NCBI GenBank assembly: GCA_048941285.1 | Contig: JBHLNS010000013.1 | Location: 8,130 to 72,129, forward strand | Origin: Promethearchaeota archaeon | Lineage (GTDB): Archaea > Asgardarchaeota > Lokiarchaeia > Sigyniarchaeales > SOKP01 | Length of the DNA stretch: 64,000 bases | Reading direction: 5' to 3' | Shown: piece after piece, positions 29,589 through 34,761 of the stretch | Position numbering within the stretch: position 1 is the first letter of the stretch | How the letters are laid out: every line of letters starts with the position of its first letter | Position numbers and translations under genes: made by a program | The notes under the pieces: model-generated | Databases searched by the model: none | What the model was told of the DNA's origin: nothing | The model's input: the letters and a program-made list of their open reading frames with translations, nothing else

Positions 29589-32453
29589 CTAAATTTTTAC
29601 TTCAATATATGCCTCAATGAGTTTATTATCGATTTTCAATATCTTCGGTTCTTTCTTACCTTCCATTTTTTGAATAATGCTATTAGCTTGAACCATCTTC
29701 TTGATATATTCTTCATGTTTCTCAACTGCTTCTGAAATAACTTTATCATTAATTTGTAAATATAAAGTGATTCGATTTTTCGTTGAGAGATTGAGTTGTT
29801 TTCTGTAATTATTCAAATGTCTGATTAGATTTCTTACGATACCTTCCGATCTTAATGACGGTGTAATTTTGGTATTTAAATCTACAATAAGTTCTGCATC
29901 ATCTCTTTTTTGAAGAGTTACCTTTTTAACATTTATAGCATCAGCTACAATTTTTAAATATTCATTTTCGAGGGTTACTCCTTGCAGTCTAACCTCACTT
30001 AAGACTTGTCTCACTGGAATTTTAGCGTTATCTCTTAATTCAAACGATCTTTTTACTATATCCCTTGTTAATTCCATGTTTCTAATAGCTTCATTATCAA
30101 TTAATTCTGTATCATATTCCGGCCAAAACTCTAAATGAACCGATTCTAAACTAACAATTCCTCTTTCGCTCAATTTCTGATATATCATCTCAGAAATAAA
30201 TGGAGTTAAAGGAGCTAAAAGTTTTGCTAAATTTTTTAATACATACGACAACGTATTCACTGCTGCTGATTTTTCATTAATCTCTGCACTTTTAAATCGA
30301 TTTCTGCTGTTTTTAATATACCATGTGGAGAGATCTTCAATAAAATTGAAAATTAATCTACTGAACTCTGCTGTGTCATAATCATCCATTAGTTGCGTAC
30401 CTTCTTTTATTAGCCTATTTAATAAACTAACAATCCATCGATCTAAGATATTATCTGAATATATTTTATCTGCATTAAACTTATCAATATTAGCCATTGA
30501 GTAAAACTTTAGAACATTAATCATCAATAAATTGAATCTTCTGTAGATTTGTTTCACTAATTCCTCTTTAAAGCTTAAATCTTGTGCCCTCATTAGTTGA
30601 GATGACATAAGATAAATCCTTAAAGCGTCAGCTCCATATTTTTCTATGATTAGATTTGGATCTGGATAATTTTTTTTGGATTTTGACATTTTAGTTCCGT
30701 CTTCGCCAAGTAAATTACCATTTACGACAACATTTTTAAAAGGAATATTATCAAATAGCAGAATTGATATTACATGCATATAGTAAAACCATGCTCTTAC
30801 CTGACCAATATACTCTGACACAAAATCACTCGGAAAATTTTTTTCAAACCAGTCAATATTTTCAAAAGGGTAATGTTTTGCAGCATACGGCATTGAACCC
30901 GATTCCAACCAACAGTCAAATACCTCTGATATACGATTCATAATTTTACTGCAACTTGAACATCTAAGATGTATTTTATCAACTATGTGTCTGTGTAAAT
31001 CCAGATCATCTTCAACTTCTTCTATTGCATTATCTTGTAATTCTTTCACTGATCCAATTACTTTTATTTCATTACATTCCTCACATTCCCATACGGGCAT
31101 TGCTGTCGCCCAAAACCGATTTCTTGAAATACACCAATCAGGAGCTGTTTCTATTATCTTTTGATATCTATAAGAAATTTCTTTAGGATACCAGTTTATA
31201 ATTTTATTGGTTTTTAGGAGTTTTGGTTTTATTTTTTGAATGTTTATAAACCAAGCATCAAGAGCATTATAAATTAAGGGTGTATTACATCTATAACAGA
31301 AAGGATATGAATGTGTGTAATCTTCTGATTCGTATATAAGATTCCGACGATGTAGATCAACCAAGACTTCTTCATCTAAATCTTTAAACCATAATCCAAT
31401 CCATTCTTTAGGGCCATCAGTCAATTTGCCATGCTCATCAATATGTTGAATTACTGGAAGATCATACTTATTTATCATATCATAATCATATTCACCATAA
31501 AGTGCAATATGTATTATTCCTGTTCCTTCATCAGATAAGACTTCATCACCACCATCTATAACAATATGGCCTTTTTTGTCGCTTTTAGTAGAAATATAGT
31601 ATAAAGGTTTATACCTTTTATTTAATAACGCTTTTCCTTTAAATTCTTTAATTATTTCATATTCCTCATTGATGATTTCTAATTTATTTTTTATTAAGAT
31701 TAAATATTCACCATCAACTTCTATTTTAACATATGGTTGATTACTATTTACAGCTAGAGCTACATTTCCGATTAAAGTCCAAGGAGTTGTAGTCCATGCT
31801 AAAAGAAATGTCTTTGGTTCTTCTTTTAATTCAAATTTTGCTGTAATAGATTGTTCAGTAACTTCCCTATAACTATTATCCATAGAAATTTCAAAATTAG
31901 AAAGCGGGGTTTCACACCTTGGACAATAAAACAATACTTTTTTACCTTTATAGACAAAACCCTCCATATAAATCTTCTTAAAAATATACCACACAGTTTC
32001 CATATACGTATTATCCATAGTTTTGTATGAATTATCAAATTCTATCCACTTACCCATTCGTTCAACAGTTTTTTTCCACTCATTAGCATACCAAAGTACT
32101 TTTGATCGACAAAATTCGTTAAATTCTTCTACACCCATCTGATAAATTTCATTCTTCTGCTTTATATTTAAAGCTTTTTCACAAACACTTTCTATAGGAA
32201 GCCCATGACAATCCCAACCCCATTTCCTCTCACAACGTTGCCCTTTCATTGTCCAATATCTTGGGAATACATCCTTTGTTACAATACTTAATATATTACC
32301 ATGTTGAGGTAATCCAGTGGCAAATGGAGGCCCGTCATAAAATATATAAGGAATACCTTTAGGTCTATGCTCCACACTTTTTTCAAATATTTTGCTATCC
32401 TTCCAAAATTTTATTAGTTCTATTTCCTTTTCAATATATGATATTTTAAACAC
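29589..32453 (-). CDS. ileS: Isoleucyl-tRNA synthetase (type 2 / eukaryote-like)
   Basis: FYDGPPFATGLP, GWDCHGLP, AWTTTPWTL, DWCISRNRFW, DCWLESGSMP, KMSKS; GTG start after AGGATAG. Confidence 0.95.
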   Translation of the reverse strand: MFKISYIEKEIELIKFWKDSKIFEKSVEHRPKGIPYIFYDGPPFATGLPQHGNILSIVTKDVFPRYWTMKGQRCERKWGWDCHGLPIESVCEKALNIKQKNEIYQMGVEEFNEFCRSKVLWYANEWKKTVERMGKWIEFDNSYKTMDNTYMETVWYIFKKIYMEGFVYKGKKVLFYCPRCETPLSNFEISMDNSYREVTEQSITAKFELKEEPKTFLLAWTTTPWTLIGNVALAVNSNQPYVKIEVDGEYLILIKNKLEIINEEYEIIKEFKGKALLNKRYKPLYYISTKSDKKGHIVIDGGDEVLSDEGTGIIHIALYGEYDYDMINKYDLPVIQHIDEHGKLTDGPKEWIGLWFKDLDEEVLVDLHRRNLIYESEDYTHSYPFCYRCNTPLIYNALDAWFINIQKIKPKLLKTNKIINWYPKEISYRYQKIIETAPDWCISRNRFWATAMPVWECEECNEIKVIGSVKELQDNAIEEVEDDLDLHRHIVDKIHLRCSSCSKIMNRISEVFDCWLESGSMPYAAKHYPFENIDWFEKNFPSDFVSEYIGQVRAWFYYMHVISILLFDNIPFKNVVVNGNLLGEDGTKMSKSKKNYPDPNLIIEKYGADALRIYLMSSQLMRAQDLSFKEELVKQIYRRFNLLMINVLKFYSMANIDKFNADKIYSDNILDRWIVSLLNRLIKEGTQLMDDYDTAEFSRLIFNFIEDLSTWYIKNSRNRFKSAEINEKSAAVNTLSYVLKNLAKLLAPLTPFISEMIYQKLSERGIVSLESVHLEFWPEYDTELIDNEAIRNMELTRDIVKRSFELRDNAKIPVRQVLSEVRLQGVTLENEYLKIVADAINVKKVTLQKRDDAELIVDLNTKITPSLRSEGIVRNLIRHLNNYRKQLNLSTKNRITLYLQINDKVISEAVEKHEEYIKKMVQANSIIQKMEGKKEPKILKIDNKLIEAYIEVKI

Positions 32454-32720
32454 CTATCCTACTTATTTTCTCTAATCTCAATCTTTTTAACTTAAAAATA
32501 TTAAAAAATAATTTAATTAACATAATTTAGTTTATATCATAAATGTCGAGAGCTTTATTCATGAAGCAGGATGTGGAGGTAAAAGCTAAGAAAATTCACT
32601 TCACAAATAAATGAATTTAGATAATAATAATCGTGGATATGATCATAATCATATTTTTCACAAAACCTAAGAATTTACTAACAATATTCATAGCATCCAC
32701 ATCCACTTTATATTTTAAAT
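32451..32720 (-). promoter_or_regulatory. Putative ileS leader/attenuator region
   Basis: Ile-rich uORF; hairpin after its stop codon; segment complementary to both the ileS RBS/start and the leader 5' region; TTTAAAAT box at 32712-32719. Confidence 0.65.
32617..32691 (-). CDS. Ile-rich leader peptide upstream of ileS (24 aa)
   Basis: ATG AAT ATT GTT AGT AAA TTC TTA GGT TTT GTG AAA AAT ATG ATT ATG ATC ATA TCC ACG ATT ATT ATT ATC TAA = MNIVSKFLGFVKNMIMIISTIIII*. Confidence 0.72.
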   Translation of the reverse strand: MNIVSKFLGFVKNMIMIISTIIII

Positions 32721-32772
32721 AAGGTAAAATACTCTAAAAAATATTACGGTATTTTATCATTTTTTTTAAACT

Positions 32773-34761
32773 TTAATCCAAAAATATATAGTGATGAGCA
32801 ATTTTTCTTTTGTCTCTTCCAGCAAGAATATGAATATGTTTAATAGCTTTAAGAGAGTCTTTGCTAAAATTGTCGATTGAAATATAAACAAGTTCTCGAT
32901 TTTTGATTCCAGCAAGTGAATAAAAATATTTGCGAGGGGGTTCTTTTGCAATATAAGCTACATATCGTTCTTTGGAATAAATAATAGCAGCTTTAAGCAA
33001 GCGTTCTGCTTTATTCTTTGTATCTTTATACTCATAGTCCAAATATGGGTCAAAAAGGGATCTGAGAAAAATCGCTGGAAAAATCGAAAGTAATCCTCCA
33101 ACTTCTACATGGGTAATCCCTGGACCAATGATAAAATCTCCCGGATTTGTTGAATAGAATGCCATATCGCTCTCTCTATCATGTTCTGCCCACCAAGTTA
33201 ATTTATATGGAAAATATTCTTTTTCTCCATCGTCTTTATCAAATATAACTACAATTGTGTCGATTTTACCTTGAACTTGTTGAATGTTTTGCACGTAAAT
33301 CTTCTTTTTAAAAGCCCAATTTCTAATAGTTTCTTTAATTGCAATTCCGTCCATTAAGCTGGATTTGAATTCCTCTATTTTAATTCTCTGATTTTTCAAA
33401 TTTTTAATTGTTTTTTTTCTTATAAAAGCAAAATAATCCTCTTCTAAAGCATCCTCAGGAGGCCACGAAACAGTATATTCTTTACCTTCTTCCCATCTAT
33501 CTCTCCATTCCCCGGGATATTTTTCTTCAGGTTTTTTCTTTAAAGGCAATTCTCTCTCTTTTCCATAGTTATAAGGAAGATGTCTTCTTAATTTTATATA
33601 TCGACCACTAGGATCATACCCACCTTCCAATGACATCTTCAGAGTTTCATAATTATCACTTTCATCATTATATGGATATTTTGTAGCTTTATCCAATACT
33701 TTCCACGCATAATCATCGTCAACTATATTTTTTGATGCGATTAATAATTGAAATAAATTTGGTAGTAATCTCTGTTCCGTTAATGAAAGATTCCTTGAAT
33801 ATTGAAATAATGTTTTTAATTTATGGAGATCCACAAATTCTTTAAATTCTTCCTCAAAATCATATTTAGCTTTGATCAAAATTTTTCTAATATGCTCAAT
33901 TTTATCAAACCGGTTAAATATTTTATAAAGTTCTTCGAGAGAATCAACCCTTTCTAATCTTTCTTTAGAAAATTCTTCTTTAAATTTCAACCACCTATAG
34001 GTATGATATGGTAATTCTCTCAAAAGATACCTAGCGTCACCACTTCTTATGTTATAAATCTTTACGTATTTATGAGGAATTAAATCTAATTCTACTTCTT
34101 GAACCTGCTCTGGGTTTTCTAAGTAATATTTTACGTTTTCCCAATGAGCCATACCAATAATAAGTAAAATTCTATGGTATATAGGCATCATTTTTAATAG
34201 ATGAGCTGCCATATATTTTTCTCTAAGAATATCTTTTTGAATATAATCATACTCTTTATCATCTTTTAACTGGTTTTTAAGAAAATCTTTTAAGATTACT
34301 TCTTTGTTGGGAATATCTTTTCTATTCTTAGATTTCTTTATAAAATAATCAGATATTTGATGATAAAACTCTTGAAGACCGATTTGATTAATAGCATAAT
34401 CATCTGGAAGTTTGAAACTTGGAGGTAAATACTCTGAGATGGAAAGATCAATAAATTCGATCGGAATATTATAATCAACACCAATCTTTATTGCTTCCAT
34501 AACTGAATCACCCGGATCTATTGGAATAAAATTTAATTTTTCTGGATTTAAGCTATCAGCATATCCAATTAAAGATAGAAAAGGTAATCTCTGGACAGCT
34601 TCAATCACTTCTTCTTGTATATTATTAGGTAATTCAACAGCGATTACATCCGGAAATACTTTAAATAATGCTATACGGACTAATTTAGCAAACTCTATTC
34701 GCGAATGGAATGTGGGAATGACATAGATATTTCTAAATTTAATATAGGGATTCTCATCCAT
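32773..34761 (-). CDS. Conserved protein with TraB/GumN/ChaN-like N-terminal domain, MoxR-associated
   Basis: H..FA..VR..PDVIAVELP, RE.YMA, IIGMAHW motifs; 1 bp from the AAA gene. Confidence 0.65.
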   Translation of the reverse strand: MDENPYIKFRNIYVIPTFHSRIEFAKLVRIALFKVFPDVIAVELPNNIQEEVIEAVQRLPFLSLIGYADSLNPEKLNFIPIDPGDSVMEAIKIGVDYNIPIEFIDLSISEYLPPSFKLPDDYAINQIGLQEFYHQISDYFIKKSKNRKDIPNKEVILKDFLKNQLKDDKEYDYIQKDILREKYMAAHLLKMMPIYHRILLIIGMAHWENVKYYLENPEQVQEVELDLIPHKYVKIYNIRSGDARYLLRELPYHTYRWLKFKEEFSKERLERVDSLEELYKIFNRFDKIEHIRKILIKAKYDFEEEFKEFVDLHKLKTLFQYSRNLSLTEQRLLPNLFQLLIASKNIVDDDYAWKVLDKATKYPYNDESDNYETLKMSLEGGYDPSGRYIKLRRHLPYNYGKERELPLKKKPEEKYPGEWRDRWEEGKEYTVSWPPEDALEEDYFAFIRKKTIKNLKNQRIKIEEFKSSLMDGIAIKETIRNWAFKKKIYVQNIQQVQGKIDTIVVIFDKDDGEKEYFPYKLTWWAEHDRESDMAFYSTNPGDFIIGPGITHVEVGGLLSIFPAIFLRSLFDPYLDYEYKDTKNKAERLLKAAIIYSKERYVAYIAKEPPRKYFYSLAGIKNRELVYISIDNFSKDSLKAIKHIHILAGRDKRKIAHHYIFLD

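Follow-up and report, generated by a model that had tools for sequence, protein, structure and literature searches.

Upstream of ileS2, a gene for an isoleucyl-tRNA synthetase (IleRS) in a Promethearchaeota archaeon, we found a short open reading frame (ORF) that ends in a run of isoleucine codons. The gene and this Ile leader lie in a stretch of 64,000 nucleotides (contig JBHLNS010000013.1, positions 8,130 to 72,129), here called the window, which was analysed together with the rest of the genome and with related genomes. The leader looks like the amino-acid-sensing leader peptides that have so far been described only in bacteria. Comparison among species supports a translated Ile-codon leader in a two-state RNA that is tightly linked to the IleRS gene, and at least three such leaders in the genus, the other two standing before a leuS and a trpB2 gene. 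The Ile leader probably acts in cis, sensing charged tRNA-Ile through the speed of the ribosome on its 24 codons.

The isoleucine-codon leader and its conservation

The leader ORF, MNIVSKFLGFVKNMIMIISTIIII, was read from the minus strand, with its ATG at 32691..32689 and its TAA at 32619..32617; an upstream GTG at 32706 would lengthen it by VDVDA. It is housed in a 319-nt gap between a 662-aa gene and the 954-aa ileS2 ORF. Seven of its ten final codons specify Ile (ATT, ATC, ATA, ATT, ATT, ATT and ATC), the last four directly preceding TAA, and exactly 163 nt separate its stop from the ileS2 GTG (32453). A previous examination of the letters of the window alone (the sequence-only reading) had pointed to the seven Ile codons among the last ten, the use of all three Ile codons, the four before TAA, the 163-nt spacing and a box ending about 20 nt before the ATG. 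All of these are borne out by the sequence, the box being TTTAAAAT at 32719..32712.

In the leader's own genome (G000; 3.55 Mb in 101 contigs, 29.7% GC), Ile accounts for 10.6% of the codons in long ORFs, and ATT, ATA and ATC are used at frequencies of 0.53, 0.34 and 0.13, respectively. Considering both strands of the whole genome, at least seven Ile among the last ten codons occur in 2 of 19,712 ATG ORFs of 15-40 codons, the leader being one of the two. A chance origin is dismissed because the ORF is conserved, which settles the question beyond the mere rarity of such an ORF before ileS. The Ile-rich leader ORF before ileS2 is real and far above the chance level.

Conservation was first followed in 41 related genomes, comprising 25 of the genus (the window's own included) and 16 from other genera of the order. 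IleRS2 orthologues with 73-89% identity were present in 14 of the 25 genus genomes, and none above 37% identity was found in the 16 genomes from other genera. All 14 loci carry an ATG ORF of 22-25 codons (42 codons in L018, via an upstream in-frame ATG), which starts 219-240 nt (271 nt in L018) and ends 141-165 nt before ileS, and whose peptide has the C-terminal end ..IISTIIII or a variant of it. A BLAST search with the 181-nt leader against all 54 genus genomes gave a near-full-length match (at least 147 of 181 nt) in 30, and in every one of these loci the IleRS2 N-terminus lies 233-269 nt beyond the match. Leader orthologues of 22-28 codons thus stand in 30/30 ileS2 loci, representing 30 species of the genus, and three loci with a different upstream gene still keep the leader-ileS2 unit. 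The alignable block starts about 45 nt upstream of the leader ORF, and the sequence beyond it cannot be aligned. Mean column identity of the leader alignment is 76%, compared with 75-88% identity of the N-terminal 300 residues of IleRS2 across species. A homologous leader ORF, VDVMNKKSKFLVSTPNYIEIISDIIII, with the stop TAG, is also present upstream of ileS2 in a more distant metagenome lineage, L090. Conservation had been named in the sequence-only reading as the decisive test, and the ORF passes it, being found at the same place in all 30 orthologous loci and in L090.

A strict three-part leader pattern was searched for in one genome per species (185,579 species) and gave only 24 matches, all in archaeal metagenome-assembled genomes. 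According to their titles, 15 are Promethearchaeota, one is Promethearchaeia, three are Hermodarchaeota, one is Hodarchaeota, one is Thorarchaeota and three are 'uncultured archaeon', which agrees with the Asgard assignment made in the sequence-only reading. Before remote IleRS2 relatives (41-56% identical and mostly DPANN-like; 72 loci with at least 250 nt upstream), Ile-rich upstream ORFs numbered 11 on the sense strand, L090 included, versus 6 on the antisense strand. Judged on those 72 loci, a leader of this kind is absent outside the Asgard clade.

Several features of the alignment suggest that the leader ORF is translated. The ORF opens with ATG in 29 loci and with GTG in one, and it ends with TAA in all 30. 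Gaps inside the ORF measure 3, 6 or 12 nt, except for one alignment artefact at the stop of L064, while those in the 3' leader measure 1-2 nt. With start, stop and frame preserved, the leader is maintained as a reading frame, which implies translation. The N-terminal half of the peptide varies freely and is poorly conserved; such variation, with a weak third-position excess, is expected if translating is what matters and not the peptide. The three codons ATT ATT ATT are unchanged in all 30 loci. The codon after them is ATC in 19, ATT in 2, ATA in 1, AGG in 3 (plus L064), GGG in 2, AGT in 1 and AAT in 1, and the codon before them is also variable (ACG, ACA, GCG, GCT, GCA, CAA, GTA, ATT and others). 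The invariant triplet points to a constraint beyond 'any Ile codon': the codons of tRNA-Ile(GAU) alone may be sensed, or an extra RNA constraint may act on those bases.

Alternative helices of the leader RNA

Helices were scored on alignment A2 of 30 sequences, to which all column numbers refer. Strand A, which lies just upstream of the ORF, can pair either with strand B inside the ORF or with strand C downstream of it (Table 1), and the two helices are mutually exclusive because both use strand A. In helix A:B, GUGGAUGUGG, just before the AUG, pairs with UCAUAUCCAC (columns 14-23/78-87), and 98% of cells are paired; one pair changes from G-C to A-U in 2 sequences, 6 pairs vary on one side only and remain paired, and in L090 a U-A pair has become C-G (read by eye). 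In helix A:C, GGAUGUGGA pairs with UCCACAUCC (columns 16-24/146-155), with 98.9% of cells paired and 7 of the 9 pairs invariant. This helix is extended by GCUAUGAA pairing with UUCUUAGC (columns 26-33/131-138), where 90% of cells are paired and 3 pairs are compensatory. Within the extension, columns 27/137 are C/G in 18 sequences, U/A in 8, C/A in 2 and U/G in none. The near-identical loci L043 and L045 differ by exactly this double change, and in L063 the change of the start from AUG to GUG is matched by U to C in its loop partner. Compensatory changes are thus present in both alternatives, A:B on the one side and A:C with its extension on the other. The segment TGGATGTGGA of strand A is invariant in 30/30 sequences.

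A third helix, D:D', begins 9 nt after the leader stop. It has 14 bp (columns 113-126/156-169), with 94.3% of cells paired and 4 compensatory pairs, and encloses a 29-nt U/C-rich loop with two U4 tracts. When the partners were slid by 1-3 columns as a control, pairing fell to 30-59% (34-51% for A:B and D:D' alone). A:C together with its extension comprises 16 bp and would fill the loop of D:D', leaving no linker to D', from which we infer that D:D' is also excluded when A:C forms. Across species the predicted free-RNA ensemble is near bistable, with A:B at 0.37 and A:C at 0.54. With B and the Ile run masked, mimicking a paused ribosome, A:C is 0.90, a rise that is partly by construction.

Strand A also carries the putative ribosome-binding site of the leader. 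GGAUGUG, 6 nt before the AUG, is complementary at 6 of 7 positions to the anti-Shine-Dalgarno sequence of the congeneric 16S 3' end (GGATCACCTCCA), which was taken from a 16S 3' fragment of genome G022, as 16S rRNA was not found in the leader's own assembly or in G006. Because strand A holds GGAUGUG, A:B and A:C both compete with ribosome loading on the leader. The RNA has the arrangement expected of a leader attenuator, namely exclusive helices of which one strand would be covered by a ribosome paused on the regulatory codons.

Outside coding sequence, strand A occurs only once in its own genome. A second BLAST match to the leader in that genome (C32:3715-3760) was rejected as a leader copy, its context being unrelated and strand A absent. 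A direct repeat, AAAAGCTAAGAA / AAAACCTAAGAA, was found at 32581-32592 and 32662-32673 (plus-strand coordinates); on the RNA strand, UUCUUAGCUUUU lies in the hairpin loop and UUCUUAGGUUUU inside the leader ORF. This repeat makes the B and C sides of the switch resemble products of a partial duplication.

RNA-type covariation reaches from 2 to 17 nt upstream of the AUG, which indicates that the transcript begins upstream of strand A and that the ORF is not leaderless. TTTAAAAT, the box pointed to in the sequence-only reading, is probably not the TATA box of a leaderless ORF, nor that of the leader transcript, since no more than 5 nt separate it from strand A with its RNA-like behaviour. A better candidate for a TATA-type promoter element is the block at 32732..32750, which is kept in 14/14 loci, including the three with a different upstream gene, and has ATTTTTTA in common with the upstream regions of tRNA-Gly and tRNA-Val genes. 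Alternatively, this block could terminate the upstream gene. A positional TATA consensus drawn from 559 gene upstream regions gave no sharp peak.

Table 1. Positions of the leader elements, of ileS2 and of the Trp and Leu upstream ORFs (window coordinates unless a contig is named)
Feature	Position	Strand	Remarks
Conserved block ACCGTAATATTTTTTAGAG (..TAATATTTTTTAGAG)	32732..32750	-	about 28 nt before strand A
TTTAAAAT	32712..32719	-	20 nt before ATG, 5 nt before strand A; conserved as AT-rich block
Strand A, GUGGAUGUGGAUG	32694..32706	-	Shine-Dalgarno-like GGAUGUG of leader ORF; partner B or C
Leader ORF	32617..32691	-	24 codons + TAA, MNIVSKFLGFVKNMIMIISTIIII
Strand B, UCAUAUCCAC (codons 17-20)	32633..32642	-	pairs with A; ends 1 nt before Ile run
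Ile run ATT ATT ATT ATC	32620..32631	-	three ATT fixed in 30/30, fourth codon variable
Strand D	32597..32610	-	5' arm of hairpin after leader ORF
UUCUUAGC	32585..32592	-	hairpin loop; partner GCUAUGAA, which includes leader AUG
Strand C, UCCACAUCC	32569..32577	-	3' end of loop; exact complement of GGAUGUGGA in A
Strand D'	32555..32568	-	3' arm of hairpin after leader ORF
T-rich block TATTTTTTAATATTTTTAAG (T6 and T5)	32491..32510	-	about 55 nt before ileS2; candidate terminator and/or TATA box
GGUG, likely Shine-Dalgarno of ileS2	32451..32454	-	contains listed start GTG
ATA, possible true ileS2 start	32442..32444	-	aligned with ATG in 10 loci, ATT in 16
ileS2, isoleucine--tRNA ligase, 954 aa	29589..32453	-	TIGR00392 810 bits, cut-off 621
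Trp upstream ORF MVAVRTLSWQWPWQWQ	G000 C70:17019-17069	+	148 nt before TrpB-like (trpB2) gene
Leu upstream ORF MISNKTALRMNIIEKTLLVNLLAVLLLF	G000 C90:8507-8593	-	about 140 nt before archaeal-type leuS

Proposed sensing of tRNA-Ile and competing explanations

In the mechanism that we consider probable, the ribosome would finish the ORF and depart when Ile-tRNA is plentiful. The RNA would then fold into A:B and D:D', leaving the U/C-rich loop and both of its U4 tracts single-stranded. When Ile-tRNA(GAU) is scarce, the ribosome would wait at the ATT codons and cover strand B. Strand A would then pair with the loop over 16 bp, hiding the U/C-rich stretch, closing the start site of the ORF and sterically excluding D:D'. 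For the output, the weakest step, the likeliest option is that exposed U-rich RNA would prompt premature termination or 3' cleavage by aCPSF1/FttA, and that a hidden U-rich loop would let transcription run on into ileS2. An Ile-tRNA shortage, or inhibition of the other IleRS of the genome, would on this inferred direction raise ileS2 expression. Archaeal polymerase terminates at U tracts with no hairpin required. The genome encodes aCPSF1/FttA (878 bits, cut-off 580). According to the accessible text of PMC8716108, this factor binds U-tract RNA through its KH domains, which are required for termination in Methanococcus; the same text lists a Lokiarchaeota orthologue among those in complementation and reporter experiments.

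Several observations weigh against this mechanism. A bacterial-type terminator, i.e., a GC-rich hairpin with a U run, was not found before ileS2. When seven leader segments were paired computationally with the region of the ileS2 start, the duplex energies were like those of shuffled sequences (mean z -0.6 to +0.5 across 30 species), and the accessibility of the ileS2 ribosome site was the same in the free RNA (0.40) and with the Ile run masked (0.41), so that translational masking of ileS2 is unsupported. In L090 the leader is present, but ileS2 is not preceded by a T run of at least four. That A:C and D:D' are incompatible is argued from geometry, since pseudoknots are beyond the scope of the folding program. 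The N-terminal half of the ORF shows weak codon-position periodicity (0.72, 0.80 and 0.87 bits), and the ATT triplet shows zero synonymous change despite the Ile codon usage of the genome. All leader copies come from one genus and one further lineage, and their counts are therefore not independent. Finally, the T-rich block before ileS2 holds TTTTTTAAT, like the upstream regions of 2 of 13 tRNA genes (Gly and Val; Thr has TTTTTAAT), and TTTTTTAAT also occurs upstream of the other IleRS gene, ileS1, in congeners. Ribosome-mediated attenuation as proposed in the sequence-only reading is thus upheld in the conserved frame, the invariant Ile run and the exclusive helices, and is not upheld as regards a bacterial-type terminator or masking of the ileS site.

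Other searches for the output step gave the following results. No U run comes directly after D:D'; instead, its loop contains U4 tracts, and T6 and T5 stand about 45 nt further on. A weak AU-rich hairpin running into UUUUCUU is 85.9% paired, with 1 compensatory pair. Minimum free energy folds of the stalled and free states in 15 species had no common downstream feature. A search for RNA runs containing the locus, three metatranscriptome runs from the same study included, gave no match, a result that carries no information on expression. Rfam, scanned permissively (E <= 10) with both strands of 32350..32900, returned 4 weak matches, none of them a T-box, the best scoring 21.7 bits against a gathering score of 47 (E = 0.17). 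A T-box riboswitch was rejected on this lack of a covariance-model match.

Two more leaders came to light when small intergenic ORFs were screened across the genome and rare residues were inspected. The first, rich in Trp codons, precedes a TrpB-like gene (NF009057, 625 bits), and four Trp in eight codons occur in only 5 of the 32,848 small ORFs in the genome. The ORF (..WQWPW.WQ) recurs in all 30 orthologous loci fetched (L201-L230), trpB2 itself being present in 43 of the 54 genomes. Its Trp codons lie within a compact hairpin and T tracts come after them; AATATTTTAATGA, a conserved block, then stands about 55 nt before trpB2. In other families of the order, a Trp-containing upstream ORF precedes trpB2 in 2 of 4 genomes, which belong to two families: ..EEITWPWHLL in L264 (G038) and MWLRIMPSNLWTISWAWH (..LWTISWAWH) in L265 (G033). 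It was not found before trpB2 in G032 and G025. The Trp leader may be older than the genus.

The second leader, rich in Leu codons, stands before the archaeal-type leuS, which is found in 38 of the 54 genomes, and an equivalent (..LLAVLLL) is present in 30/30 loci fetched (L232-L261). Leu enrichment alone is not distinctive, since 136 of the 32,848 small ORFs match; it is conservation that singles out this leader. Its RNA has an 11-bp helix over the Leu codons, an inner hairpin in which one pair shows 14 double changes, and, from the stop codon onwards, a hairpin of 14 bp around a conserved U-rich loop. By this comparison, the ground plan of the Leu leader is the same as that of the Ile leader. 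The upstream regions of the ValRS, MetRS and bacterial-type LeuRS genes in the leader's own genome contained no cognate-rich upstream ORF, and no Leu-rich upstream ORF was found before LeuRS in two genomes of another family. The bacterial-type LeuRS gene (C32:123680-126484, plus strand; TIGR00396, 905 bits) is the commoner copy, being present in 50 of the 54 genomes, so the leader-bearing synthetase is the patchier paralogue both for Ile (30 versus 46 genomes) and for Leu (38 versus 50).

Because cognate Trp and Leu leaders exist in the same genus, codon-based sensing is the natural reading. More tentatively, and with somewhat less than an even chance in our estimate, at least the Ile-ileS2, Leu-leuS and Trp-trpB2 leaders might form a family within the order in which ribosome pausing leads to a refolding that hides U-rich RNA from aCPSF1/FttA or exposes it.

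The explanation that competes best with cis-acting sensing is an independent small gene or small RNA that starts from a promoter of its own and ends at the T-rich block, with ileS2 read from another promoter inside that block and the RNA or peptide acting in trans or on something unrelated. A T run of at least four (mostly at least five) stands at the position of this block in all 30 loci (read by eye, with no computed count), and the block may be a U-tract terminator, an ileS2-proximal promoter or both. With TTTTTTAAT recurring before tRNA genes and ileS1, ileS2 may indeed have its own promoter, the leader being a separate transcript ending at the T-rich block. L090 does not fit this picture, as it has neither a T run nor TTTTTTAAT between leader and ileS2. 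The Trp leader likewise has T tracts and then AATATTTTAATGA before trpB2, yet each of the three leaders matches the amino acid of the adjoining gene, and a trans-acting product would not need such adjacency. No leader strand pairs with the ileS2 start, and trans-acting attenuator RNA and peptide are known from bacteria, as described for Sinorhizobium trp in the accessible parts of PMC7298713 and PMC7968998. Nevertheless, the leader is never found away from ileS2 (30/30 loci and L090), the unit is intact where the upstream gene differs, and the poorly conserved N-terminal half speaks against a functional peptide. An independent gene is therefore unlikely in our view.

Two further candidate elements were discarded. 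TTAATTAAAT was rejected as a specific operator common to ileS1 and ileS2, since it has 232 occurrences in the genome. A second upstream ORF across the T-rich block (MLIKLFFNIFKLK..) is present in some loci only, and neither the ORF nor its frame is conserved across the 30.

We give still less weight to an operator of structured RNA or of DNA to which a protein binds, either IleRS reading an anticodon-like GAU or a transcription factor, with the ORF being incidental. In E. coli, ThrRS binds thrS mRNA via an anticodon-like element. Strand A contains two GAU triplets, and the GTGGAT / ATCCAC-type repeats could be protein sites; the Leu and Trp leaders, however, share no sequence with the Ile leader and yet carry cognate codons. 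Nucleotide-level conservation extends over strands A, B and C and the ATT triplet, where synonymous changes are almost absent, but those substitutions that strand A and its partners do show compensate one another as expected for RNA. An incidental ORF is also hard to reconcile with start, stop and frame being kept in 30/30 loci and with indels that are multiples of 3 within the ORF, unlike those in the flanks, and the Rfam scan gave no match near the gathering score. Such an operator is accordingly quite improbable.

That the Ile run is a functionless by-product of AT-rich intergenic DNA is hardly credible: at 29.7% GC, AT-richness does favour Ile codons, as the sequence-only reading had cautioned, and Ile is the commonest enrichment among small intergenic ORFs (22 of 2,255 with at least five Ile in eight codons), but the rarity of the full pattern, the column identity of the leader next to that of the IleRS2 N-terminus and the failure of the sequence upstream of the conserved block to align all contradict it.

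Known systems and the ileS2 gene

Textbooks treat leader-peptide attenuation as a consequence of the coupling between transcription and translation, and it has been regarded as bacterial, with trpL, hisL, ilvL/ivbL, thrL and pheM before pheST as examples. Like these attenuators, the leader described here has a short ORF with tandem cognate codons at its 3' end, exclusive helices and one strand that would lie under the paused ribosome, and the gene behind such a leader is an aminoacyl-tRNA synthetase gene, as in pheST, or a biosynthetic gene. Unlike them, the Ile leader occurs in an archaeon and has no GC-rich terminator hairpin with a U run before the gene. Its shared strand lies upstream of the ORF together with the ribosome site of the ORF, so that the switch would also shut leader translation, and its 163-nt gap between ORF and gene may hold a promoter.

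In the Rho-dependent leader attenuators mgtL-mgtA and tnaC-tnaA, pausing selects a fold that exposes a pyrimidine-rich factor-loading site. The proposed logic of the Ile leader is similar, as the paused ribosome would pick the fold that determines exposure of an unstructured pyrimidine-rich site. To our knowledge, Archaea are without Rho, and unlike in mgtL and tnaC the proposed factor would be aCPSF1/FttA, a U-tract-binding nuclease.

Cognate-codon ORFs without classical attenuator parts are also on record in bacteria. The available portion of bioRxiv 10.1101/834739 describes leaderless polycysteine short ORFs of mycobacteria that are conserved upstream of related genes, and that of PMC1262725 describes actinobacterial Cys and Leu leader peptides without obvious terminators. 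The Ile leader resembles these cases, as far as those portions go, in that its output is not a textbook terminator. It differs from the mycobacterial ORFs, which are bacterial and leaderless, since the covariation upstream of its AUG argues that it is not leaderless. In Bacilli, ileS1 and ileS2 occur with a T-box, and IleRS2 of Priestia megaterium rises 70-fold upon inhibition of IleRS1 by mupirocin (10.1101/2022.02.09.479832 and PMC1262725, accessible text). As there, the archaeon has a second IleRS beside the housekeeping one, behind an element that, as proposed here, reads the charging of tRNA-Ile. The Bacilli sensor in these sources is an RNA that binds uncharged tRNA, whereas here it would be a translating ribosome; and, unlike in that pair, 6 of the 30 genomes yielded no IleRS other than ileS2.

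The full-text literature, with subscription-only papers outside its scope, yielded no leader-peptide attenuator or cognate-codon upstream ORF in any archaeon. A 2026 cross-domain review of termination signals is without the words 'attenuat' and 'leader peptide', and in the papers examined that contain both 'Asgard' and 'leader peptide', the latter term refers to secretion signals or stands in a reference list. If the proposed reading is true, the three cognate-codon leaders would demonstrate that in archaea the ribosome serves to sense tRNA charging, and that translation-coupled transcription attenuation exists in Archaea, in the lineage closest to eukaryotes. Archaeal attenuation would then be built on eukaryote-like 3'-end machinery, not on bacterial intrinsic terminators or Rho. 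The leaders would also offer a sequence-defined natural system for studying ribosome-polymerase coupling in Asgard archaea and the crosstalk between RNA structure and aCPSF1/FttA. The patchy leader-bearing paralogues for Ile and Leu parallel the inducible, antibiotic-resistant IleRS2 of Bacilli, as portrayed in the accessible text of the sources above, which would suggest a link to synthetase duplication.

The sequence-only reading had called the downstream gene ileS. The TIGR00392 match (Table 1) agrees with this assignment, but the gene is not the sole ileS, as a second paralogue is located at C10:6041-8926 (+). The latter is a 1048-aa frame with 32% identity to ileS2, and both pass the ileS model. 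The closest relatives of IleRS2 without an Asgard label are DPANN archaeal proteins with 56-57% identity, so on sequence comparison ileS2 is a second, patchily distributed, DPANN-like IleRS. Within the genus, the 1048-aa IleRS was found in 46 of the 54 genomes and the leader-bearing type in 30; one of the six genomes in which ileS2 is the sole IleRS found is a single 3.3-Mb contig. ileS2 scores 675 bits for MupA and 672 bits for MupB, and the other paralogue 492 and 462 bits, respectively. With cut-offs of 1900, these scores are far too low for assignment to type 2 (MupA/MupB-like, mupirocin-resistant) IleRS, and resistance is not implied.

The start of ileS2 may differ from the listed GTG. 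Among L036-L065, 10 loci have ATG at the aligned codon 6-8 nt downstream of GGUG, 16 have ATT there and 3 have ATA, and in L041 and L048 the GTG is followed by an in-frame TAA. The start codon of ileS2 may be AUU or AUA in most species.

Upstream of ileS1, 28 loci contained 8 Ile-rich matches, of which 6 lie in an alternative frame of the upstream gene and 2 at -350; no conserved intergenic leader was present. The region 60-200 nt upstream of ileS1 (L002, L171-L199) is strongly conserved and contains an imperfect palindrome (..ATTCAAAGATAGAAC.TTCTATTGAAT..) and the block GAATTAATTAAATTTTTTAATTTGA. On the other side of the Ile leader, the 662-aa upstream gene (32773..34761, minus strand) has a weak TraB-family match.

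Some further small ORFs of the genome were noted. One on C32, about 12-120 nt upstream of a ValRS-like gene, encodes ..VTGSIPVRS.. and resembles a translated tRNA T-arm, so that valS is probably preceded directly by a tRNA gene. In the assembly, Aragorn reported only 13 tRNAs, perhaps owing to introns. At C68:36655-36789 (+), a small ORF containing seven consecutive Met codons (ATG repeats) precedes a 162-aa gene, and a 45-codon ORF on the minus strand of C30 (37616-37754 in reverse-strand coordinates) consists almost wholly of Asp, Glu and Trp.

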